The notes: generated by a model not told the origin, from the letters alone. A stretch of DNA of 64,000 nt from Alphaproteobacteria bacterium (GCA_016927735.1 JAFGMC010000002.1:4290-68289); one strand, 5' to 3'. Positions 1,797 through 64,000 are shown, counted from the first letter of the stretch. Translations and numbers: made by a program.

Positions 1797-2294
1797 ATGC
1801 GATATAAAAATCTCTTATCAGAATTAACAGTTGAAGAAACGGTTAATAAATATAAATCCGATTTAAGAAAAAATGAAAAAATAATGGTTCATTTTTCAAA
1901 TAATACATCATGCCTTTTGAAAGATATCAGTCCATTTAGTGTTGAATTTATTGGTGGATTGTGGCGCGGTCAAAAAGAATTTAAATACAACATAAAAACA
2001 GTTCGTGATAAGAAATTTATTTTGGGTGATAAAATTGAACGTTCAGAATTACCCCGCGAAGAAATACCAATATTTGACTATTATCCGGCTTCTATGGTTG
2101 GTATAAATTGTTATGGATATTCTATTGGTGAATTTGATTATATTGTTGCAAATTGTGGTGGGGCTTGGGGATACGGAAAAACAATTTCTGCTGCACGTGC
2201 GTATTTATCCAGCAAAGTTATAGATATTTCAACACAGAATCCAAAAATTAGTAAAATACTTTTAAAAGAAATGAAACAAAAAAGCTCTCGTTAA
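1797..2294 (+). CDS. hypothetical protein (165 aa)
   Basis: Long ORF 5 nt after obgE on the same strand, followed by a terminator. No recognisable motif. Confidence 0.5.
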   Translation: MRYKNLLSELTVEETVNKYKSDLRKNEKIMVHFSNNTSCLLKDISPFSVEFIGGLWRGQKEFKYNIKTVRDKKFILGDKIERSELPREEIPIFDYYPASMVGINCYGYSIGEFDYIVANCGGAWGYGKTISAARAYLSSKVIDISTQNPKISKILLKEMKQKSSR

Positions 2295-2311
2295 TCGTAA
2301 AAAATAACTTG

Positions 2312-2340
2312 AACGACCCATTATGGTCGTTTTATTTTTT
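2312..2340 (+). terminator. rho-independent terminator
   Basis: AACGACC-cattat-GGTCGTT followed by TTATTTTTT. Confidence 0.6.
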
Positions 2341-2396
2341 GCTTTTTATATTTTCATCTGATATGATTTAAACAAGTTAAATTGAAAGGAGAAAAC

Positions 2397-3023
2397 ATGT
2401 CATCACCAAAATTAAAAGGTACCCGGACAGAAAAAAATCTGTTAATTGCGTTTGCCGGGGAATCACAGGCACGTAATCGTTATGGATTTTTTGCATCTGC
2501 TGCCAAAAAAGAAGGATATTTTGCAATTGAAAAAATATTTCTTGAAACTGCAGAACAAGAACGTGAACATGCATCTCGTTTGTTCAAATACCTAGAAGGT
2601 GGGGATTTGGAAATTACAGCTGCATTCCCAGCAGGTAAGATTGGAACAACTCTTGAAAATCTGCAATCTGCAGCATTTGGTGAAAATTATGAAAATACAG
2701 AAATGTATCCAAAATTTGCACAAGTCGCAGCGGAAGAAGGCTTTACTGCTATTGCAGATGTATTGAAACATATTGGTTATGCAGAACGCTATCATGAATC
2801 ACGTTATCGCGCACTGATTGATGCAATTGAAAAAGGGACATTGTTCAAACAAGATAAAATTGTTATGTGGCGTTGCACAAACTGTGGTAATTGGGAAATC
2901 GGAACCGAAGCACCAACAATATGCCCAGCTTGTTTACATCCACAGGGATACTTTATCAGCGAAGGGACAATTTCCAGATGTGATACGAACGAAGGGTTTT
3001 GTGAATATTCAAACAAAGATTAA
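2397..3023 (+). CDS. rbr: rubrerythrin
   Basis: ATG at 2397 preceded by AAAGGAG. Ferritin-like diiron domain (GESQARNRY, EQEREHA, ERYHESRY) plus a C-terminal rubredoxin-like CTNCG...CPAC. Confidence 0.9.
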   Translation: MSSPKLKGTRTEKNLLIAFAGESQARNRYGFFASAAKKEGYFAIEKIFLETAEQEREHASRLFKYLEGGDLEITAAFPAGKIGTTLENLQSAAFGENYENTEMYPKFAQVAAEEGFTAIADVLKHIGYAERYHESRYRALIDAIEKGTLFKQDKIVMWRCTNCGNWEIGTEAPTICPACLHPQGYFISEGTISRCDTNEGFCEYSNKD

Positions 3024-5203: not shown

Positions 5204-5320
5204 GCAAAGTATATTATCAATTTATTTAATTAAATCAATAATTTTGTAATTTTGAATTTAAATGAATGTTTGCCTTTTTTTTTGCAATATGATAAAATTT
5301 GTTCAATGAGAGAGGGTTTA

Positions 5321-6547
5321 ATGAAGAAATTTTTATTAACAATTGGTATTTTTGCCATTTGTACCTTTGGAAACAATGCTTTTGCGTTGTCCGCAGGAAC
5401 CGTGAGTGGGAATGATACCGCGCGCGTGTCAACCCCAAGCAATGATCGTGGTTATCAAAGTGTTGCCAGTACATATAAAACAAATCAACGTAATACATAT
5501 TATATGGTGACCCAGCCGGATGTTGATACTGCATGTCGTACAAAAATTTACAATTGTTTGGCGGCATATTGTGGTGATGTAACGGTTGTTCCCGGTCAAC
5601 GCGACAGTCGTTGTACTTATTCCACAGAAAGTGAACTTTACAACTATGCTTTATTGTGTTTACAAAAAGATACTGATGTTTTGATGCCCCAGTATAATAC
5701 AGGTACCAGAACCGGAACAGGTGGTATGAATACTGCTGCAAGACTTTGCCCATCGTATGTCCAACAAGAATTAATGTCTTATTTATCTATGGCAAATATG
5801 GCGGAAAAATTGACTAAATCCCGCTCTAGTTTATGTCTTGAACGTCGTCAAGAATTGGAAGCTGCAATGTCTTGTCATTCAATTACATTGTCTTATGGAA
5901 ACGAAACATCAAGTATGCTGAATTCACAATTAACAGATTATTGTGGTTCTGGCGTTCCAGGTGGATCATCAGAAATGGTGACTAAATTTGCTAATGCTGG
6001 GAACGTTGGTGCAAATATTTGGGGTTGGGCTGAAAAGGTTGTTAATTTGGACCTGAATAAAAAAGGTGCAGATTGGCAGGTTGCTGTTGATGCGGTTTTG
6101 GCTGGTTATACAAATCGTATGAATTTGGCATGTGGTGATGATGCAAAGGTGACTACTTCTTCGTATTCTTCTAATAATAGCCAACCGACTAGTTTACAAA
6201 CAGCTGCTGCATTGGCAGTTGGTATGGCGTTTCCAACGACAGAAAAAAATTCTGAAAATATTTATGAATCATTAAATATGTGGCAAGAGGTTCAAAGTGC
6301 ATCTGATGTTTATGACTATGCGACTGCAAAACAGGTTGTACAGGCCGGTTTGACCAATGCTGCGACAACACAAAATGCGTTTTTAAATAGTTCACAAATG
6401 GATAGTATGCAAACATCATATAAACTGGGAACCAAGGTATTTATTCTTCGTGACAGTTCCAGATGTTATATCGTTCCAGTCGCCACATTGGATGCAAAGC
6501 AAAAATCATTGCTGGCGCAATCATTTGCAAACTGTGTAAGTCAATAA
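5321..6547 (+). CDS. secreted Cys-containing protein (408 aa), unknown function
   Basis: ATG at 5321 after GAGAGGG. Signal peptide MKKFLLTIGIFAICTFGNNAFA. 12 Cys in the mature part. The N-terminal motif C-x6-C-x4-C (ACRTKIYNCLAAYC) is shared with the 770-aa protein at 49373..51685. Confidence 0.7.
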   Translation: MKKFLLTIGIFAICTFGNNAFALSAGTVSGNDTARVSTPSNDRGYQSVASTYKTNQRNTYYMVTQPDVDTACRTKIYNCLAAYCGDVTVVPGQRDSRCTYSTESELYNYALLCLQKDTDVLMPQYNTGTRTGTGGMNTAARLCPSYVQQELMSYLSMANMAEKLTKSRSSLCLERRQELEAAMSCHSITLSYGNETSSMLNSQLTDYCGSGVPGGSSEMVTKFANAGNVGANIWGWAEKVVNLDLNKKGADWQVAVDAVLAGYTNRMNLACGDDAKVTTSSYSSNNSQPTSLQTAAALAVGMAFPTTEKNSENIYESLNMWQEVQSASDVYDYATAKQVVQAGLTNAATTQNAFLNSSQMDSMQTSYKLGTKVFILRDSSRCYIVPVATLDAKQKSLLAQSFANCVSQ

Positions 6548-48001: not shown

Positions 48002-48020
48002 TAATGAATTTACTTAATTA

Positions 48021-48047
48021 AAAAAGACCCATTTTCGGGTCTTTTTT
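48021..48047. terminator. bidirectional rho-independent terminator
   Basis: AAAAAGACCC-atttt-CGGGTCTTTTTT between convergent genes. Confidence 0.75.
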
Positions 48048-48057
48048 ATTGAAAGTA

Positions 48058-49344
48058 TTATTGCATCACTTCATTATCATTTTTTTTCAAAATTTTCGGA
48101 TTTACGGTTTTTATTACAGGTTTATCTACAACAGGATTTTCTTCATCCACGACAGGATCTTCTGTTGTCAGAGTTTCTTTTTTATCTAATACACAGTTTT
48201 TGTATTCTGTTGGTTCTATTTTTGTCCAACATTGGGTTTCTAAGGCTGAATTTTTATCTTTCTTAGGACCAAATGTTAAATCTTGGGTTGTAAACTTCAC
48301 TGAATTTTTACAAAAACCGGTTGTAGTGGCTTTGTTATCAAAAATTTTACCAGCAGGGCATTTTATACAAACACCTGTACTTTCTGGAACACCAACCCTG
48401 GCATCACCAGAACATTCAATACAAGTTTTATCTGTTGCAGATGTAAAAGCCATACCAGCAACCTTGCAACGATATTCAAAACAGCTGCCTTTGGCCGTTA
48501 AATCATGAAATTCTTCAGCAAATTTAGCCTTGTCCCAACCTGTACAAAGTGTATTCATACTGCATAATGTGTTATTTATAGCTATACAATCTGTTTTTGT
48601 TGCGTTTGGTTCATACCCATCTTTACATAATAATGTTTCTTCACCAACGCCCCAGATTGTTGCAGTAGAAACCATATCTTTCCACCCATCACGTTGCGAT
48701 CTGACCACCATTGGTCTCGCAAAAGCCCCATGTCCAGATTGCAACCATCCAGATATTCCCAAAACCATATCATGTTCCTGACCAGCATTCAAACCACAAC
48801 CTTTGTATTCGTCCCAATTAAACATAACAATTGTACTTTCTACACTTGGACCAGATTTTGTTATTTTATAACCTGAAAAATCTGACTTTTTTATAAGTGT
48901 AGAATCACATGTTGTAGAATCATCACCCGTACAACCTTCACCACTGTGACCTGGTTTACATAACCAAAAGCATTTTGCCATATTTCCTGCAGGATTATAA
49001 TATTGTGTCCATGCATTTCCCTTATTTTTATTTGCACCTTGGGCCTGAGTTACACAGAATTTTGCACCATTTTCATTTACATCACGTGCCAATAACAATA
49101 AAGTCGCCATTTCATCATCAAAAGTTCCACGATTTGCTTGATCTTTCTTAGTACCAACCCAATTTTTACAACCAGATAAACTGTTTCCAACACAAGCATC
49201 ACCCAAACTCTGTCCTAAACAATGAGACATAGGTGGATTTCCCCAAAACGCTTTCATATCACTCTTTTTTTTACCAGCGGCAAAACTAGGTACAACCAAT
49301 GTACTTAAAATAAAAGTTAAAAAGATTTTCTTTATTAATTTCAT
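48058..49344 (-). CDS. secreted Cys-rich protein (428 aa, 22 Cys), unknown function
   Basis: Signal peptide MKLIKKIFLTFILSTLVVPSFA. Cys clusters include CIECSG...CIKCPAGKIF...FC. Pro/Val/Glu-rich tail. Confidence 0.7.
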   Translation of the reverse strand: MKLIKKIFLTFILSTLVVPSFAAGKKKSDMKAFWGNPPMSHCLGQSLGDACVGNSLSGCKNWVGTKKDQANRGTFDDEMATLLLLARDVNENGAKFCVTQAQGANKNKGNAWTQYYNPAGNMAKCFWLCKPGHSGEGCTGDDSTTCDSTLIKKSDFSGYKITKSGPSVESTIVMFNWDEYKGCGLNAGQEHDMVLGISGWLQSGHGAFARPMVVRSQRDGWKDMVSTATIWGVGEETLLCKDGYEPNATKTDCIAINNTLCSMNTLCTGWDKAKFAEEFHDLTAKGSCFEYRCKVAGMAFTSATDKTCIECSGDARVGVPESTGVCIKCPAGKIFDNKATTTGFCKNSVKFTTQDLTFGPKKDKNSALETQCWTKIEPTEYKNCVLDKKETLTTEDPVVDEENPVVDKPVIKTVNPKILKKNDNEVMQ

Positions 49345-49372
49345 ATATTTTTATTACTCCGAAACAATATTA

Positions 49373-51685
49373 TTATAAATAACACATATTGTTGTCCCAA
49401 TAACCGCCAATTTTTTCGCACTGTAGTTTATACCAATCTTCTGTAAAACTGCATGCATCAGTTGCAGAATCATATTTTGCATAACCATTACCACCGGTTG
49501 CATCATCTTGTGCTAAACACTGATAACGTGTTGTGTTTTGTATACAATATCCACGTTCACTGGAATTAGCCTCTGAATCACTTGGGGCCTCTTTACCGAA
49601 AACGTTTGAATAGAATATAGCTTCTTTTTTGATTCCAGCTGCATCTTCAGGATCAACCCATACACCATTTGCTTCTTCACAAGCAGCGGTAAACACATAA
49701 CTTAAATTTACCTCTATATCATTAATAATATTATTAATTGAACCACCAACCAAACTCTCATCTAATGTGTTTGTTGACGGATCTATGCAATATATATTTG
49801 CACGATCATAAAACATTTTTTTCAAATCCGCACTGGAAGTAGAACGACATGCATAAGGATATTCTTCATCACCAGCTGTTGGTGTACAAACATCTTTTGC
49901 ATAATTACTAATTGATTTTTCACAACCTTCGGCAACCTTTACATTGTCAACAGTTTGAACGAATGTCAAAAGAGCTGTCAAACCACATTGTGTATTCTTT
50001 AAACGACCATTATTATCAAATTCACATTTTACATCATTTGGCCCAGCATAAAGCGCTGCACAAGCAGCAACCTTGTCTGCACACATTGCACGTGCTGCAT
50101 AGGCATTCAAAGCGCCTGTTGCCTGAGCATTAGTGTTATCAAAACTTGCCAGTGCACCAGATTGCGTATCATAACATTCTTTCATAATACTGACGCAACT
50201 ATTTTTAATTGATTCTATTTTTGCATCTTGTGCCTGTGCAATTTCAATCAGAGCACTGCGTTTAAATTCTTCCCAAACGGTTGCAGCCTTATCACGGCAA
50301 GAATCTAGGGCTTTTTCTGCAAATATTTTTTTATCGTCTAAGAATTTACTAAATCTTGGATTTGAAGATATAACATCACCAGTCTTACTGTTCAGATTCA
50401 ATATTTCGGTCAATTGGAATAACTGGGGGGAATAAATAGGGTTACCAGTATTCACATCAATATAACTGCCTGTATAATCCAAACATTTTTTATAGTTTTC
50501 ACCACATGCCATTTCACCTGTAATATTTGCTTTTACATTTGTTATACATGCATTGACATCTGCAGAATTATGGGAACGATATTCTTCTAATCTAGATTCA
50601 CGTAAAATCTTTTCTGCGTCACGAACTGTTTTTGTCACAGCTTCTTTTTGTGTATCTATCTTTTTCTCGTATACATTACAATCTTGGGTTATTAAAATAC
50701 CATAAGAACTTTTCGCCATTGTTAAAACAGCACTGTTTTCACATGAATTTTTTATTAATTCCAAACATTGTTTGTTCGCTGAATTGTATAAAGAAGTACC
50801 TTCCAATTTACTTAAATCTTCATTTGTTCCGAAATTGAAAACAGAGCCAGAAGAATTATCACCCCAAATATCACCCAAATCAGATGTAAAATCTAATGAT
50901 AAACTGGATAATGATGTCGCAGAAGAATCAACTTTTTTCTTACCAGATAATAAATCACCAATTTCAGATAATACACTGGCTGCTGCACTAGGGTCATTCT
51001 TTATCGCATTTTCACCAACCGTGGCAGAATACATTGCATTAACTTCTGAAGCTGTTTTATCAATTGCATTTAAATTATTATCTTGGAATTGCATTAACAA
51101 TGTTTTTGCTTGATCCAATGCCGCTTCTGTATCACGAAAATCTGTAATTTTACCGCTGCAATAGCAACGACGATAAGTATCATTTGATTTTGCACAAAAT
51201 TGATCCATACAAGTATTGTACGCTTCACGACATGTCGCGTAACCACCACCAATTTTCGAAACATCATCAAAGACAGCTGTTGCACGAGAAGAGGCCGCAC
51301 GAGATACAGAGCCAGGTTGAACCGATGCAGAACGTGCAGCTAAAGGAATTTGTCCTGATCTGGTTATTGTTGCCGATCTGGCATTTGTACTGTCGGGTCT
51401 GGAATTTACAGAAACTGTTTGTTTTGCTGCCGAACGATTTGTCACAACACCATTACTTTGTTGTTCAATTGTTGCCCTAGAAGTGTTTACACGACGTACC
51501 GCGGCAGATCTGTTGGATTCTTTAATATCACCCCTTTGGGAGACAATAACAGCCGCAGAACGTGGGTTAGGTGACTGTACAGCGAACGTCATACCATGAA
51601 TCCCAGCCGTAGCAAGAAAAACAAATCCAAAAAATTTAAACAGTTTTTTATTCAAAATTCTACTCTTCCTGCTGCATTTTATCAT
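49373..51685 (-). CDS. large secreted Cys-rich protein (770 aa, 28 Cys after the signal), unknown function
   Basis: Signal peptide ...FFGFVFLATAGIHGMTFA. N-terminal RSA-type repeats, then CREAYNTCMDQFC...RRCYC and paired Cys throughout. Confidence 0.75.
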   Translation of the reverse strand: MIKCSRKSRILNKKLFKFFGFVFLATAGIHGMTFAVQSPNPRSAAVIVSQRGDIKESNRSAAVRRVNTSRATIEQQSNGVVTNRSAAKQTVSVNSRPDSTNARSATITRSGQIPLAARSASVQPGSVSRAASSRATAVFDDVSKIGGGYATCREAYNTCMDQFCAKSNDTYRRCYCSGKITDFRDTEAALDQAKTLLMQFQDNNLNAIDKTASEVNAMYSATVGENAIKNDPSAAASVLSEIGDLLSGKKKVDSSATSLSSLSLDFTSDLGDIWGDNSSGSVFNFGTNEDLSKLEGTSLYNSANKQCLELIKNSCENSAVLTMAKSSYGILITQDCNVYEKKIDTQKEAVTKTVRDAEKILRESRLEEYRSHNSADVNACITNVKANITGEMACGENYKKCLDYTGSYIDVNTGNPIYSPQLFQLTEILNLNSKTGDVISSNPRFSKFLDDKKIFAEKALDSCRDKAATVWEEFKRSALIEIAQAQDAKIESIKNSCVSIMKECYDTQSGALASFDNTNAQATGALNAYAARAMCADKVAACAALYAGPNDVKCEFDNNGRLKNTQCGLTALLTFVQTVDNVKVAEGCEKSISNYAKDVCTPTAGDEEYPYACRSTSSADLKKMFYDRANIYCIDPSTNTLDESLVGGSINNIINDIEVNLSYVFTAACEEANGVWVDPEDAAGIKKEAIFYSNVFGKEAPSDSEANSSERGYCIQNTTRYQCLAQDDATGGNGYAKYDSATDACSFTEDWYKLQCEKIGGYWDNNMCYL

Positions 51686-51711
51686 TTTTAATGGGTATCA
51701 ATCAATACGAA

Positions 51712-52293
51712 TTATTCAATACAACAATTAACCGCGTTTTTAACCCATTCACCCAGACGTTTTACAGTAGATTTATGTTCTGTATTTGAAGATTTTTCTA
51801 ACTTTTCTTCTGTTTCTTTTACATGAAAAGCCTCTGAAATAGTAGAATTATAAGTTTCTGATGCAACTTTTTTAACCCCTGTTATATCAATCAATTCCAT
51901 ATTCAGTCCCCAGAATAAAGAATATAAATCATATGCCTTATTAAATAAACTGTATGCATCTTCTTTTTTGCCGGCACCAATTGCCTTGGTTCCAACTTCC
52001 ATTACTCTCATTGACGCGGCCAATAAATGCTTTGATATACACCAGACTTCGCCATTGTCATTTTTAACAATATTTTGCATTAATTCTTTACGCATTTCTC
52101 GAACAGTATTAATCAAATCATAAAAACCTGTTTTTTCAGTCTTGGCACCACTAAAAAAGAAATGTTCTTCCAGTGAAATTAAGTTCATCAAAGCAATTGT
52201 TAAATCTTGGTCAGATGATAAATCCAAAGGGTTAGCCTTTTTGGCTGCATCAACTTTTTCAATCATTTGTTCCAGTGTCAATTTTTTTACCAT
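51712..52293 (-). CDS. helical cytoplasmic protein ending in CCIE, unknown function
   Basis: 193 aa with no signal peptide. Conserved-looking core DQDLTIALMNLISLEEHFFFSG...EVWCISKHLLAASMRVMEVGTK. C-terminus NAVNCCIE. Confidence 0.6.
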   Translation of the reverse strand: MVKKLTLEQMIEKVDAAKKANPLDLSSDQDLTIALMNLISLEEHFFFSGAKTEKTGFYDLINTVREMRKELMQNIVKNDNGEVWCISKHLLAASMRVMEVGTKAIGAGKKEDAYSLFNKAYDLYSLFWGLNMELIDITGVKKVASETYNSTISEAFHVKETEEKLEKSSNTEHKSTVKRLGEWVKNAVNCCIE

Positions 52294-52318
52294 TTCATTT
52301 TCCCTTATACTTAAATAT

Positions 52319-52834
52319 TTATTTTATATAAACTATTGCTGCGAATATTGCTGTGGCTATCATCAAGAACAATGTAGGTACAACTACTTTTTGAAAAGCA
52401 AATTTTGCATGACCATTATTATCACGTTTAATTCTCACATACCAACGTGCACCAAAATAAAATGCGATTGTTCCGACTATTATCCCGATTAAGAATTTAT
52501 CAATTCCCCACAATGTCAATGCACCAAAATCAATTCCTGGCATTAAATAAACACAGCCCAACAAAGCGTAATATGATATAAATGGTACAACTATTTGCCA
52601 GAATGCAGTGTTAACACCACGTTTTTTCAGCCAGCCAGCCGTCCAAAAGAACATAGACAATGTTAATCCACCCGCCCAAATACCAGTAATAACATCGTCA
52701 ACCCCCAACAATCTGGCACCTTCGAGTCCTGCACCAACCGCAACCGTGCATACTGGACAAACTGCCTGTGCAACAGGATTAAGCACAATTAATATTCCTA
52801 ATGATGCTAATAATATTTTTGTAATCTTATTCAT
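52319..52834 (-). CDS. polytopic membrane protein with N-terminal CPVC motif
   Basis: Signal-like N-terminus ...NPVAQA followed directly by VCPVCTVAVGAGL. About 4 further hydrophobic segments. Confidence 0.6.
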   Translation of the reverse strand: MNKITKILLASLGILIVLNPVAQAVCPVCTVAVGAGLEGARLLGVDDVITGIWAGGLTLSMFFWTAGWLKKRGVNTAFWQIVVPFISYYALLGCVYLMPGIDFGALTLWGIDKFLIGIIVGTIAFYFGARWYVRIKRDNNGHAKFAFQKVVVPTLFLMIATAIFAAIVYIK

Positions 52835-52887: not shown

Positions 52888-53736
52888 TCAACATGATTTT
52901 TGTACCGCGCGCAAATGTGCAGACCGTGCACGTAGATTATTCTCTAATTCTTGTTCTGATGGCATAAAAGTTTTTAACAATTTGAATTTTGCAGGTTCAA
53001 TTTCTGGCATTCTGGGATCGCCAAGTGCGGTTGCCCATTCACGAAATACATTTTTTACCAATCTATCTTCCAGCGAATGAAAAGTCACACAAACACAAAT
53101 TCCACCAGTTTTTAAACGAGCGGGTACACTTTCCAGCGCGCGACGTATTTCACCCAACTCATCATTAACTGCAATTCGCAAGGCTTGAAAAACCGGCGCA
53201 ATATCTTTTGGATTATGAACCAGTTCTTTTAATTCAAAAGTTGTTTTTGGTAACTTTTCTTTAATTACCCTGGCAATTGGCATCGCTTTTTTAATATCCC
53301 CAAAATCATGTAATATTTTTGCCATTTCAGAAATCGATGAATTTTCTATTAATTCAGCAGCACTTTGACCTGTACTTTCCATACGCATATCCAATGGACC
53401 ATCAAAACGAAATGAAAACCCGCGTTCACCTTCATCAATTTGCATAGATGATATCCCCAGGTCAAAAACAATTGCATCCACAGTTTCATTTATATCTGAT
53501 ATTTTCGAGAAAGGTTTATTTATAAATTTGAAATTATTTGGAAATTCATTCTTGATGATATCTACTGTACTTTGAACATTTGGATCACGATCAAACGCAA
53601 TCACATTTGCGCCAGCAGCCAAAAAAGCCCGGGTATACCCACCAGCCCCAAAAGTACAATCAATGATTGTTTTGTCTTTAACATCGCCAAGAGTTTCCAA
53701 AACTTTATCAATAAGAACAGGAATGTGTTTCATCAT
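52888..53736 (-). CDS. rsmH: 16S rRNA (cytosine1402-N4)-methyltransferase
   Basis: HIPVL, DCTFGAGGYTRA, FDLGISSMQID, SFHSLEDR pattern. Confidence 0.93.
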   Translation of the reverse strand: MMKHIPVLIDKVLETLGDVKDKTIIDCTFGAGGYTRAFLAAGANVIAFDRDPNVQSTVDIIKNEFPNNFKFINKPFSKISDINETVDAIVFDLGISSMQIDEGERGFSFRFDGPLDMRMESTGQSAAELIENSSISEMAKILHDFGDIKKAMPIARVIKEKLPKTTFELKELVHNPKDIAPVFQALRIAVNDELGEIRRALESVPARLKTGGICVCVTFHSLEDRLVKNVFREWATALGDPRMPEIEPAKFKLLKTFMPSEQELENNLRARSAHLRAVQKSC

Positions 53737-60155: not shown

Positions 60156-62168
60156 TTATATACTATCATCGTATATAGAATAATCTATCCCATTGTAATT
60201 AGCCCTTATCGAACCTTTTTGACCGGTATCCATATTTCCATAATACGTTGACCCGTTTAATTGAATATACAAAGCAGGGGTTGTTTTCTTCTGACTACGT
60301 AAATGAACTTGATTACTGCCTATATTAAATACTTTTCCGCAATCACCAGCTTCATCTGCCCCAGCACCAAAACCAATTGTTGTTAATCCTGCATCGCACG
60401 CTGTACGCGTTATTAAACCATCTGCTGACCAATAAGTTGTTCCAACAGCATCACAAGCATCAACCGCAACATAATATCCACCAAAACAACCCGAGATAGA
60501 ACATAAATTATTTACTGTATTACTTCCAGAAAGCCAAGTTGCATTCGCCCAAGAACTGTCATAATTGTTATTATTTGAACAAATTGCATCACAAGAAGTT
60601 TTTCCAGTTGTACTGGTTGTTGTTCCATCTTGACATGCGATACATGAGTTTTCACCGTTATTGGTATTATACGATCCAATCGTACATGCTGTACATGTAG
60701 AATTTCCACCACGGGAATATGTCCCAGCTAAACATTCTATTGCTCCGCCGGTGACACCATAATTAATCAAGGTAGAAGGGCAATAATATCCGGCTGTACA
60801 CGTAGTTAATGTTGATGAACCAGCAGTTGAAATATATGTACCATCAATTGTTTGTATCTGACATTGGGAATCATCAGTTTTACCAGCGATAGTATTTGCC
60901 GTATAATCCGTTGGGCAATTTGTGCAAATAGATGCACCAGTCGCGGAATATGTTGCACCTGTACATTGAATTATAGAACCAATATTACCATAACCAATCA
61001 ATGCAGCAGGGCAATAATATCCGGCTGTACAAATTACCTGGGTTGTAGAATTTGCAGTTGCAATATATCGACCAGCAGTTGTTTGTAAGGCACATTGATT
61101 TAATGTTGATAAACCTGTCCCACCAGATGTATATCCCGCAGGACAAGAGTTCCTGGTGCCAGTACCACCATAGTTAATCAAAGTATCCGGGCAATAATAT
61201 CCGGCTGTACACATAGTTAATGTTGATGCATTAGCCGTTGCAATATATGTTCCCCCAGTTGTTTGTACTTGGCACTGTGAAGATGAAGTTTTGTTATTTG
61301 TTAAATTCGCATTATATATACTCGGGCAACTTGTACAACTGGCAGCACCAGACCCAGAATATGTTGCACCTGTACATGGTAATATTGAACCAGTACTGCC
61401 ATAACTGACCAGCGCAGAAGGACAATAATATCCAGCCGTACATGTTGTCACATATGTCACATTTGGCGTTGCAATATATGTTCCACCTGCCGTTTGTATC
61501 TTGCATTGATCTATCGCTGACAAACCTGTCCCACCAGATGTATATCCTGCAGGACAAGCAATTCTATTACCAGTACTGCCATAGTTTATTAATGCAGCGG
61601 GACAATAATATCCAGAATCGCAAGTATTTATTATTGTATAATATGCATATGCAAGATAGGTTCCTGCATCTGTTTGAATTTGACATTCTGAAGATGATGT
61701 TTTCCCATCTTCAAGATTATCTGTATAGCCACTCGGGCAATTTGTACAACTGGATGCACCAGATCCGGAATAGGTCGCACCCGTACAAGGTAATCTGGAG
61801 CCTGTACTGCCATAATTAACCAATGCGGCAGGACAATAATACCCAGCTGTACAACTTGTTTGACTTGTTGAATAAGCTGTTGCTATATACCGACCAGCAG
61901 ACGTTTGTAATACACATTGATCTATTACTGATAAACCCATCCCACCAGATCTATATCCCGTTGGACATCTTACACGTCCATAATTCCTTTTTGGATTATT
62001 AACATTTGAAAACCCCTCGCAATAATATTGTGATGTGCATGTTGCACAATAACTTCCACTCCAATAAGTACCGGGGTTACAACTAACTATGGCTGCCATT
62101 GCATTGCTTGTAAATGAAACTACAAACAACATCATTAAACTAGCAAAAAAATATTGGATTTTTCTCAA
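60156..62168 (-). CDS. secreted modular Cys-rich repeat protein 1 (670 aa)
   Basis: TTG start after GAGAG. Signal peptide MRKIQYFFASLMMLFVVSFTSNAMA. Alternating modules with CTAGYYCP...YGSTG and CTGATYSGSGA.SCT.CP. 142-aa non-repeat C-terminal domain ending YSIYDDSI. Confidence 0.8.
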   Translation of the reverse strand: MRKIQYFFASLMMLFVVSFTSNAMAAIVSCNPGTYWSGSYCATCTSQYYCEGFSNVNNPKRNYGRVRCPTGYRSGGMGLSVIDQCVLQTSAGRYIATAYSTSQTSCTAGYYCPAALVNYGSTGSRLPCTGATYSGSGASSCTNCPSGYTDNLEDGKTSSSECQIQTDAGTYLAYAYYTIINTCDSGYYCPAALINYGSTGNRIACPAGYTSGGTGLSAIDQCKIQTAGGTYIATPNVTYVTTCTAGYYCPSALVSYGSTGSILPCTGATYSGSGAASCTSCPSIYNANLTNNKTSSSQCQVQTTGGTYIATANASTLTMCTAGYYCPDTLINYGGTGTRNSCPAGYTSGGTGLSTLNQCALQTTAGRYIATANSTTQVICTAGYYCPAALIGYGNIGSIIQCTGATYSATGASICTNCPTDYTANTIAGKTDDSQCQIQTIDGTYISTAGSSTLTTCTAGYYCPSTLINYGVTGGAIECLAGTYSRGGNSTCTACTIGSYNTNNGENSCIACQDGTTTSTTGKTSCDAICSNNNNYDSSWANATWLSGSNTVNNLCSISGCFGGYYVAVDACDAVGTTYWSADGLITRTACDAGLTTIGFGAGADEAGDCGKVFNIGSNQVHLRSQKKTTPALYIQLNGSTYYGNMDTGQKGSIRANYNGIDYSIYDDSI
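60585..62090 (-). repeat. in-frame tandem module repeats (about 411-nt super-repeat) inside repeat protein 1
   Basis: The exact 23-mer gggcaataatatccggctgtaca occurs at 60778, 61009 and 61189. Related copies lie near 61420, 61600 and 61830. Confidence 0.8.
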
Positions 62169-62267: not shown

Positions 62268-64000
62268 TCACATACTGTCATCATATACAGAATATTGTGT
62301 ACCACTTGAATTTATTCTTAAACTTCCCTTGGTATCTGTGGTCATATTTCCATAATAAACAGTACCACCAACATTTATATTCAAAGAAGGTGTTGTCTTC
62401 TTATTGCTGCGCATATATATTCTTTCAGCACCAAAGTTTAATATACGTCCACAGTCACCAGCCTCGTCAGCACCAACACCAAATCCAATTGTTGTTAACC
62501 CAGCACTGCATGCTGTACGAGTAATTGAATTATTAGCAGACCAATATCCAACACCAACTTCTGAACATGTATTAACCGGGGTATAATAACCACCCATACA
62601 TCCGTTGATTAAACATAAATTGCTGACAATATTATTATTCCATGTTGCGGTTGCCCAAGAACTGTCATATGAATTATTATTTGAACATACAGCATTACAA
62701 GAAGTTTGACCAGTTGTTGTTGTTGTTGTACCATTCTGACAAGCATAACAAAAATCTGACGCATCATCACTGTACGAACCAATCGCACAATCTGTACATT
62801 CTGACGCACCTGCATCAGAGTAAGTTCCAGGTAAACAACCATCTGTATATCCTGTGCTTCCATAACTAATTAACGCTGATGGACAATAATATCCAGGCAT
62901 ACAAGATGTTAAAGTTGTATCATTTGCAGTCGCAATATATGTTCCAGCAGTGGTTTGCCATTTACACTGAGTATTTGTTGTTTTACCATCACTGGTATCG
63001 TCAACATAATTCGTTGGACATGATGTACAACTGGTCGCTATTCCACCGGCACTGTAAGTTGGTCCAGAACATATATTACAAGTAGCGGTAGCGGTATTAT
63101 TATTTGCAATTACATAACCACCACTTGCATTTACACTATAAGTGCTGGCTGGCCAAGCAGAACCTGTATATGTAACCTGTATTGAATTCACATAAGAACA
63201 ACCTGTTATTGTTTTGTTCGGTGCTGTATATTTACAAGATATACTTCCCCCACTGCCTGTTGAAGATGTATAAGTACCGCCACTGGGGTTTACACCCGGA
63301 AGCGAACTGCATGCTATTATGGATCCAGTGTCACCGTACGCTAATAAAACAGAAGGGCAATAATAACCACCGATACATTGTGGTGCACTTGTAGCATATG
63401 CGGTTGAAACATATGTACCAGCAAGTGTTTGCCATTTACATTGATTTTGTTCAGATAATCCCGTGCCACCATCATCATAGTTTGTTGGACATGCCGTCCT
63501 GGTACCTGTACTGCCATAATTAACTAATGTAGAAGGACAATAGTATCCGGCTGTACATATTGTTTCAGTTGTATCATTACTAAATTTTATATACGTACCC
63601 CCCGTTGTTTGTAATTGACATTCATTTATTGTGCCGGCCATAGTTCCGCCATCATCATAGTTTGTTGGACATGATATTATATTACCAGTACTGCCATAAT
63701 TAACCAATGCGGCAGGACAATAACTACCAGCTGCACATGTTGTTGCACTCGTTGCATTTGCAGTTGGAATATAATAACCAGTAGTTGTTTGAAACTGACA
63801 TTGGGTAGCCGCAGTTTTATATGATTCTGTATTATCATCATAATTCGTTGGACAAGCTGTACAACTTGGTGCACCAATTGATGAATATGTAGCACCTGTA
63901 CATGCATCACAAGAAGATGTCTGACCTTGGATTACTGTATGAGCAAGTTTTGCTGTACCAGCGGCACAGGAGCTTTCCGGTGAAGATAAAACAATTACTT
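62268..64000 (-). CDS. secreted modular Cys-rich repeat protein 2 (5' end beyond the window)
   Basis: Hand translation shows the frame stays open from 63707 to 64000 (...CPAALVNYGSTGN is preceded by further modules). It has the same module types, plus a unique segment and a 139-aa C-terminal domain ending YSVYDDSM. Confidence 0.8.
   Translation of the reverse strand, partial: VIVLSSPESSCAAGTAKLAHTVIQGQTSSCDACTGATYSSIGAPSCTACPTNYDDNTESYKTAATQCQFQTTTGYYIPTANATSATTCAAGSYCPAALVNYGSTGNIISCPTNYDDGGTMAGTINECQLQTTGGTYIKFSNDTTETICTAGYYCPSTLVNYGSTGTRTACPTNYDDGGTGLSEQNQCKWQTLAGTYVSTAYATSAPQCIGGYYCPSVLLAYGDTGSIIACSSLPGVNPSGGTYTSSTGSGGSISCKYTAPNKTITGCSYVNSIQVTYTGSAWPASTYSVNASGGYVIANNNTATATCNICSGPTYSAGGIATSCTSCPTNYVDDTSDGKTTNTQCKWQTTAGTYIATANDTTLTSCMPGYYCPSALISYGSTGYTDGCLPGTYSDAGASECTDCAIGSYSDDASDFCYACQNGTTTTTTGQTSCNAVCSNNNSYDSSWATATWNNNIVSNLCLINGCMGGYYTPVNTCSEVGVGYWSANNSITRTACSAGLTTIGFGVGADEAGDCGRILNFGAERIYMRSNKKTTPSLNINVGGTVYYGNMTTDTKGSLRINSSGTQYSVYDDSM

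Follow-up and report, generated by a model that had tools for sequence, protein, structure and literature searches.

The window analysed here is a 64,000-nucleotide stretch of an alphaproteobacterial metagenome-assembled genome (MAG; Alphaproteobacteria bacterium, GCA_016927735.1, JAFGMC010000002.1:4290-68289), in which four genes downstream of rsmH, here called p1 to p4, encode proteins that are all named 'hypothetical' by NCBI. The first two are the subject of this report: p1 encodes a membrane protein with a CxxC motif and p2 a helical protein with a vicinal Cys pair at its C-terminus, and together they may form a thiol-redox module. An earlier reading of the sequence alone (the sequence-only reading) had described four co-oriented, closely spaced genes directly after rsmH that end at a strong terminator. 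The open reading frames (ORFs), the gaps and the rsmH matches agree with this description; all four minus-strand ORFs were confirmed with unchanged coordinates in the order rsmH, p1, p2, p3, p4, separated by gaps of 53, 25, 26 and 28 nucleotides (nt), respectively. The features of the locus, in window positions, are as follows:

52888-53736, minus strand: rsmH, the upstream context, with Pfam and NCBIfam matches
52319-52834, minus strand: p1, polytopic membrane protein of 171 aa (from ORF, homologs and AlphaFold2 (AF2) model)
52748-52759, minus strand: CPVC motif of p1 (Cys26, Cys29), from the translation, after an A-x-A signal-peptidase-like site
51712-52293, minus strand: p2, 193 aa, predicted cytoplasmic four-helix bundle with a flexible C-terminal tail, ending in NCCIE
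52027-52044, minus strand: W-C-I-S-K-H motif of p2 (Trp84-His89, with the invariant Cys85), from the alignment
51715-51726, minus strand: C-C-I-E C-terminus of p2 with the vicinal Cys pair C190 and C191, from the translation
49373-51685, minus strand: p3, 770 aa, exported and Cys-rich, candidate client
48058-49344, minus strand: p4, 428 aa, exported, 22 Cys
48019-48048, no strand assigned: bidirectional intrinsic terminator between the convergent p4 and helix-turn-helix (HTH) genes, from folding

The identity of rsmH follows from matches to Pfam Methyltransf_5 (3e-72) and TIGR00006 (1e-70); the dnaE stop and the rsmH start share positions 53733-53736. The hairpin at 48019-48048 had a folding energy of -18.5 kcal/mol (z = -7.4 versus shuffles), in line with the strong terminator described before; it was missed by a consensus terminator scan, probably owing to the A and T runs on either side, which base-pair as part of the stem. 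From rsmH to p4 the consensus scan returned only two weak intragenic matches, and no terminator-like site was found by it in the 53-nt rsmH-p1 gap; rsmH is possibly co-transcribed with the p1 cluster. Promoter-like sites were not in excess of shuffled sequence and no promoter is claimed.

Each of the four proteins has hundreds to thousands of conserved homologs and the genes are, therefore, real, but none of them could be assigned to a known family. Scans of p1-p4 against Pfam and NCBIfam gave no match for any of them, as the sequence-only reading had anticipated. A Pfam scan of 38 p1 and 36 p2 relatives at a threshold of E<=0.1 gave nothing above noise, including DsbB, VKOR, DsbD, MauE and DUF3429; the positive control, a neighbour in locus L133, was recognised as DsbD_2 at 1.7e-18. 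Profile searches of PDB sequences with p1 and p2 gave no match. The AF2 models of p1 and p2 were also compared with 350,542 PDB chains by Foldseek, a check that had been suggested earlier, and no significant match was obtained (best E 1.6 for p1 and 0.39 for p2); no DsbB or VKOR chain was among the 50 matches listed for p1. The p2 model had no significant match in BFVD either. Two candidate assignments were rejected. A likeness of p2 to sulerythrin (E about 0.6, TM about 0.3) is a generic bundle likeness, and the ligand pattern of p2 is not E…ExxH. The label DUF3429, which UniRef attaches to a p1 homolog of Ca. Enterousia intestinigallinarum (P0046), was not reproduced at E<=0.1 and is probably spurious. 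A literature search for the pair or its motif strings found nothing relevant. Neither the curated libraries nor the PDB contain the p1 and p2 families so far; membrane-coupled thiol chemistry is a known kind of function, which would be carried here by a protein pair that is previously undescribed.

The closest relatives of the four genes are found in gut and rumen MAGs (Candidatus Enterousia, Rickettsiales, Alphaproteobacteria) with chromosomes of ~1 Mb. According to PMC12306168, these organisms belong to the GTDB order Rs-D84, which is reported there to be purely fermentative and to have no respiratory chains. The order dnaE > rsmH > p1 > p2 > p3 > (p4) > HTH > gpmI is kept in 80 Rs-D84 genome loci; 38/80 have the full gene set and p4 is undetectable in 18/80. 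Identity within Rs-D84 is ~70-80% for p1 and p2, ~50% for p3 and 24-57% or undetected for p4. In the window, rsmH is not followed by ftsL/ftsI, and p1-p2-p3 fill that slot throughout the order; in the usual dcw cluster, ftsL/ftsI come after rsmH. At 90% identity, the homologs form 504 clusters for p1, 952 for p3 and at least 8000 for p2; for clusters at 50% identity, a p2 profile search gave at least 541 at a cut-off of E<=1e-3 and 304 at the stricter E<=1e-10. The p2 family was seen in bacterial loci and metagenomes, and p2 relatives were not found in viral contigs. A genome-contig scan gave only Rs-D84 relatives, since the patterns derived for it are clade-specific; the neighbourhoods of distant members were taken from look-ups plus a metagenome scan.

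In 150 of the 164 loci, the gene immediately upstream of p2, on the same strand, is a p1 homolog; the median gap is 18 nt, and the two genes often abut or overlap. The GC content of these loci ranges from 23% to 60%, and the pairing persists in the most divergent lineages checked; some of the loci belong to lipopolysaccharide-bearing diderms, judged by Lpt and Mla neighbours, others are low-GC contigs. The conservation of the quartet, which had been proposed as a check, was found in Rs-D84 (together with housekeeping synteny), whereas elsewhere only p1-p2 recurs. The functional unit is p1 plus p2, neither the quartet nor p1 alone. Within this unit, p2 is the core and more widespread component and p1 its commonest partner, because p2 also occurs without p1 in four settings: beside a tlyA-type methyltransferase in some Rs-D84 contigs (L065, L070, L091, L095), where it looks like a second copy; in the arrangement ArsR < p2 > glutaredoxin (Grx)-like lipoprotein in gut contigs; in the order ArsP > thioredoxin (Trx) > CcdA > p2 (L112); and as a p2-Grx fusion adjoining an extracytoplasmic function (ECF) sigma factor.

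The CxxC motif is present in 141/142 p1 homologs (CPVC 99, CPIC 18, CAVC 13, CIVC 3, and others) and is always preceded by a small-x-small signal-peptidase-like site. In the window, this is AQA followed by VCPVC in a polytopic protein, as had been read before and is borne out by the translation and the AF2 helices. In an alignment of 38 diverse p1 sequences (41% mean column identity), C26 and C29 are invariant. The AF2 model (pLDDT 87, pTM 0.78), which rests on 34 fairly close sequences, predicts a signal-like helix (3-24), a helix (27-42) whose N-terminus is capped by the CxxC, and transmembrane (TM) helices at 47-71, 77-97, 113-138 and 148-170. The mean number of Lys plus Arg in the family is 1.8 in the N-terminus, 3.2 in loop 70-77 and 4.2 in loop 134-149, but only 1.05 in the CxxC segment and 1.5 in loop 98-113, both offset by acidic residues. 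Because of these counts, the positive-inside rule predicts that the CxxC is outside and that the N-terminus and loops 70-77 and 134-149 are inside; the extracytoplasmic placement of the CPVC in the sequence-only reading is upheld by this prediction. The two loops placed inside carry the conserved basic motifs …KKRG… and …K-x-K-R-x-N-G-G-H-A-x-F-x-F-Q-K-V-V…. An additional CxC in an outer loop occurs in 15/141 homologs; a second conserved Cys pair was not found in the window p1, and its C94 is not conserved. In the outer half of the modelled bundle, GxxxG-type motifs (G51…G55, G117…G121) and the Gly/Ala-rich helix 27-42 may form a packed site.

In p2, the residues D24, S26, M36, E42, E43, H44, R65, R68, E82, W84, C85, K88, H89, R96, E99, K103, C190 and C191 are invariant in the family. 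AF2 folded the protein into a four-helix bundle (22-52, 56-75, 81-106 and 110-131; pLDDT >90 for residues 30-130), beyond which a low-confidence linker of variable length and a short helix lead to the terminal C-C-x-E. No signal peptide was found in p2, so that the description of a helical protein without a signal peptide that ends in NCCIE agrees with both translation and model. All 163 p2 homologs in the loci end in CC-x-E, with CC within their last six residues, and the C-terminal CC is an invariant hallmark of the family. Thiol chemistry at C85 is suggested by natural variants of three kinds: a Thioredoxin domain (CGSC) forms the N-terminus of P0407, a Glutaredoxin domain (CPHC) is inserted ahead of the CC tail in P0427 and P0432, and in P0455 (L167:3735-5393) an intein with a LAGLIDADG domain is placed immediately before C85. 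Inteins tend toward functionally critical sites. Furthermore, p2 may work as a dimer, because in the tandem-duplicated forms P0381, P0383 and P0386 the first copy has lost the Cys motifs and the second has kept them.

A Cys pair on a mobile C-terminal arm would be analogous in function to that of Erv2 (C-terminal CGC), insect thioredoxin reductase (TrxR) and MerA (Cys-Cys). In those enzymes the C-terminal Cys pair, which is vicinal in TrxR and MerA, ferries electrons or ligand from the core to a partner. Unlike them, p2 has no recognisable nucleotide-binding motif and no CxxC in the bundle, and it is not related to them in fold or sequence. From the sulfhydryl oxidases of the Erv/ALR type p2 differs in that Foldseek returned only generic bundles and that the bundle has a single invariant Cys. 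The resemblance of the C-terminus to prenylation substrates of the Rab type had already been called merely formal, and it is: p2 is a bacterial four-helix bundle in which no GTPase domain was found.

The genes that accompany p1-p2 are overwhelmingly those of thiol-redox proteins. A glutaredoxin/thioredoxin-like protein of ~130 aa was found in 40 of the 83 distant loci, at position -2 (33) or +1 (7) relative to p2. Its N-terminus is that of a lipoprotein (lipobox) or a signal-anchor and the protein is, therefore, taken to be extracytoplasmic. The motif is CPHC in 34/40, and a second conserved Cys pair brings the conserved Cys to four. E. coli DsbA has CPHC in its active site. In L168, a membrane-anchored TlpA/Redoxin-like CHPC protein follows p2, and in L167 a membrane protein with a PCYCGC motif and a ZIP transporter precede p1. 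Three loci of low-GC organisms (L116, L133, L154) share a tightly packed, co-directional seven-gene operon with the order ArsP_1 permease > TM-thioredoxin (CWSC) > DsbD_2/CcdA > 2x[4Fe-4S] ferredoxin > Grx-like CPHC protein > p1 > p2. From its gene content, this seems to be an uncharacterised envelope-redox super-operon in which a reducing arm is joined by another one.

In Rs-D84, the position after p2 is always taken by one to three very Cys-rich exoproteins. The first of them, p3, comes after p2 in 82 loci, all of the Rs-D84 type, and p3-like genes were found only there. The Cys counts given by the sequence-only reading were correct (p3 28 after the signal peptide, p4 22); p3 has 29 Cys in total, and all 28 of the mature part are invariant in 26 sequences. 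The NCBI model of p3 is 760 aa long and starts 10 codons downstream of the first ATG; the signal peptide is kept either way. Residues 36-140 (about 51266-51580) are an Arg/Ser/Ala-rich low-complexity region of ~105 aa with four N/P-R-S-A-A/T repeats, which could be an envelope-spanning linker or anchor. The large domain with its 28 invariant Cys is typical of a disulfide-rich extracytoplasmic fold. No CxxC was found in p3, so that p3 is not itself an oxidoreductase, and a profile search with p3 gave no match in Pfam, NCBIfam or PDB sequences. p4 is poorly conserved and its slot is variable in relatives; elsewhere in Rs-D84 it holds other Cys-rich exported proteins; for example, L067 encodes exoproteins with 29, 51 and 34 Cys and L035 exoproteins with 29, 29 and 27. 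BLASTP found no similarity between p3 and p4, and the idea of a related exoprotein pair was dropped. In an unrelated lineage (L161-L164), a secreted, very Cys-rich protein of 334 aa is encoded convergent to p2 (about 1971-2972, minus strand, in L164), echoing the Rs-D84 arrangement.

Five of the 56 ORFs in the window are Cys-rich, three of them beyond p3 and p4. Two are adjacent genes for secreted paralogs on the minus strand (60156-62168, 670 aa and 46 Cys; 62268-63707, 479 aa and 30 Cys), which are ~46-49% identical and have eukaryote-like Ephrin_rec_like (furin-type Cys-rich) repeats; the third is an exported ORF on the plus strand (5252-6547, 431 aa, 15 Cys) with no family match. With several Cys-rich exported ORFs in the window, a need for extracytoplasmic disulfide chemistry exists in the organism at large. 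That p3 and p4 adjoin p1-p2 is suggestive, not specific; the two exoproteins are putative clients of p1-p2.

Taken together, we propose that p1 and p2 are a new membrane-spanning two-component thiol-redox module that serves extracytoplasmic disulfide chemistry, a proposal for which we see an even chance of being right. The invariant CxxC of p1 would be exposed at the outer surface of the cytoplasmic membrane. p2 would be a cytoplasmic bundle that combines a catalytic-looking Cys (W-C-x-x-K-H) with a long flexible tail tipped by the vicinal Cys-Cys, and would most likely dock on p1 at its two conserved basic loops on the cytoplasmic side. Through the pair, redox equivalents would then move between the cytoplasm and thiol-disulfide carriers outside it, with the presumed direction of electron flow considered below. 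In many lineages the carrier would be the operon-encoded, exported Grx-like CPHC protein; in Rs-D84, where the module stands at the head of an operon that also encodes Cys-rich exported proteins, it would most likely aid formation or repair of their disulfides. As to the route across the membrane, the p2 tail might reach the outward CxxC through the p1 bundle, or a small carrier might be used. The sequence-only reading had suggested a dedicated thiol-disulfide factor encoded with its substrates. The invariant outward CxxC, the thiol-redox neighbours and the Cys-rich slot speak for the first part of that suggestion, but the unit is p1 plus p2, with p3 and p4 as no more than candidate clients.

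We lean towards an oxidising, DsbB-like role rather than a reducing, DsbD-like role, because the usual partner carries CPHC and because the co-operonic reducing pair of TM-thioredoxin and CcdA would otherwise make p1-p2 redundant. Judged from the sequence, the probably extracytoplasmic CxxC of p1 follows the first hydrophobic helix, as in DsbB and VKOR, and has a hydrophobic dipeptide between the Cys (CPVC, CPIC, CAVC, CIVC), like CVLC in DsbB. Besides, a small helical membrane protein encoded beside an exported thioredoxin-fold CPHC protein is reminiscent of DsbA-DsbB, and a minority of p1 proteins has a second outer-loop pair (CxC) like DsbB and VKOR. On the other hand, none of the 38 p1 sequences had a profile match to DsbB (PF02600), VKOR (PF07884) or MauE (PF07291), the p1 model appears to have no similar fold in the PDB, and the window p1 has a single Cys pair without the second, shuttling pair of DsbB and VKOR. 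Furthermore, the obligatory-looking cytoplasmic partner p2 has no counterpart in the DsbA-DsbB, VKOR or MauE systems. The quinone-to-respiration electron route of DsbB and VKOR is also unavailable in a host lineage reported to have no respiratory chain (PMC12306168), so that their usual electron outlet is gone. A more specific version of the oxidising role, which we put forward tentatively and hold to be well short of an even chance, is a quinone-independent disulfide generator, in which a disulfide at C85 of p2 would be passed via the CC tail, threaded into p1, to the CxxC and from there to the CPHC protein or the clients.

Several observations weigh against the proposed module. The p1 alignment shows no conserved Cys within the membrane or at its cytoplasmic face, and hence no evident path from the p2 cysteines to the outward CxxC; this is the main weakness of the proposal. 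Neither p1 nor p2 is structurally similar to any redox enzyme in the PDB as searched by Foldseek, and the occurrence of p2 without p1 in several contexts means that p2 has a function of its own. Neither in the window nor within 8 kb in Rs-D84 loci did we detect an exported thioredoxin-fold gene. The motifs of the partners conflict, since CPHC is DsbA-like but a TlpA-like fold with CHPC hints at reduction; free members of the Grx-like subfamily are exported, yet the same subfamily is also fused inside p2, which has no signal peptide; and the ArsR, ArsP, ZIP and PCYCGC neighbours fit a metal or metalloid role. As far as the clients are concerned, Cys-rich exoproteins are also encoded away from p1-p2 in the window. 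The housekeeping genes on either side are equally syntenic in Rs-D84, the whole block from dnaE to gpmI being kept, and gene order in Rs-D84 alone was, therefore, not counted as functional evidence; the adjacency of p3 and p4 to p1-p2 there may be inherited gene order.

The same cysteines could also work in the opposite direction, as an analogue of DsbD/CcdA that exports reductant from Trx or Grx to p2, its CC tail, the p1 CxxC and finally exported thioredoxin-fold proteins, for isomerisation or repair. Reducing flow would be thermodynamically easy in fermenters, Trx and Grx domains are fused to cytoplasmic p2, and p2 lies directly after a DsbD_2 protein in L112. Proteins like the TlpA/Redoxin-like CHPC protein encoded after p2 in L168 are typical CcdA/DsbD clients. 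Like DsbD/CcdA, p1 would be a membrane Cys protein between cytoplasmic and extracytoplasmic thioredoxin-fold proteins with an operon link to a TlpA-like protein, and one membrane Cys pair could suffice in principle; the genomic linkage with extracytoplasmic thioredoxin-fold partners (40/83 distant loci and L168, not in the window) is shared with both DsbD/CcdA and DsbB. We nevertheless consider reductant export unlikely. The commonest partner has CPHC, the motif of the strongly oxidising DsbA, and a genuine CcdA with a thioredoxin is already present in the operon of L116, L133 and L154 and would make a second reducing system redundant. p1 has no match to the DsbD/CcdA profiles (PF02683, PF13386) and no membrane-embedded Cys pair that is reachable from both sides: in CcdA, two of the six TM helices each contribute one Cys that is buried mid-membrane, whereas the p1 cysteines are adjacent and outside. 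In addition, DsbD needs no p2-like adaptor.

A relay of a thiophilic ligand rather than electrons, be it a soft metal or metalloid (Cu, Zn, Hg, As) or persulfide sulfur, which would cross the membrane as in MerP/MerT/MerA or YeeE/YeeD, is improbable in our view. It would explain the ArsR-type regulators and the ArsP_1 permease in some operons, the ZIP transporter and the PCYCGC-motif protein by p1-p2 in L167 and the four conserved Cys of the Grx-like partner; the invariant Glu/His/Cys set of p2 could be a metal site, and its vicinal Cys tail is the one feature reminiscent of the Mer relay, namely of MerA. However, similarity to Mer, HMA or TusA proteins was not found for p1 or p2 in Pfam and NCBIfam, p1 has no ladder of Cys or other soft ligands through the membrane, and the fusion partners of p2 are classical redox folds. 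The ~70-80% identity of p1 and p2 in Rs-D84 genomes of <1 Mb suggests housekeeping, not detoxification (PMC12306168). Similarly improbable is that p1-p2 is unrelated to p3 and p4 (serving, e.g., membrane homeostasis, or signalling with p2 as redox sensor) and that the Cys-rich genes are mere neighbours in a reduced syntenic genome: this would account for the conserved block dnaE, rsmH, p1, p2, p3, (p4), HTH, gpmI with its unrelated housekeeping genes, for the absence of p3 and p4 outside Rs-D84, for two loci with p1-p2 but without p3 (L039, L073), for the p2-Grx fusion beside the ECF sigma factor and for the 5/56 Cys-rich ORFs of the window, but not for the short gaps (25-28 nt) in a cluster whose one strong terminator lies at its end and in which none was detected internally, nor for a downstream slot that repeatedly holds different Cys-rich exoproteins, nor for the Cys-rich secreted protein beside p2 in the unrelated lineage L161-L164.

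The proposed thiol-redox module bears on a wider problem. To our knowledge, how disulfides are formed in bacteria without DsbB or VKOR has been an open question since 2008. About 20% of bacterial species have no DsbB, VKOR, MauE or other known disulfide-generating enzyme (bioRxiv 10.64898/2026.03.05.709764). The p1-p2 pair is a concrete candidate for this unexplained disulfide formation and occurs in a reduced-genome gut lineage with secreted proteins of 22 to 51 Cys; it may be the way in which respiration-less small-genome bacteria manage the disulfides of Cys-rich secreted proteins. Should the quinone-independent version be true, p1-p2 would fill part of the gap left by organisms that have disulfide-rich secretomes without DsbB, VKOR, MauE or a respiratory chain, such as Rs-D84 and, it seems, further lineages with small genomes. 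With another direction or another ligand, p2 would still be a sizeable unknown family with a clear, catalytic-looking signature, and p1-p2 a new membrane-coupled pair.

The window also contains a rubrerythrin gene at 2382-3023 on the plus strand (Pfam, 3e-30). This suggests that the fermentative host can still deal with peroxide or oxygen, a point of relevance to the possible source of oxidising equivalents.

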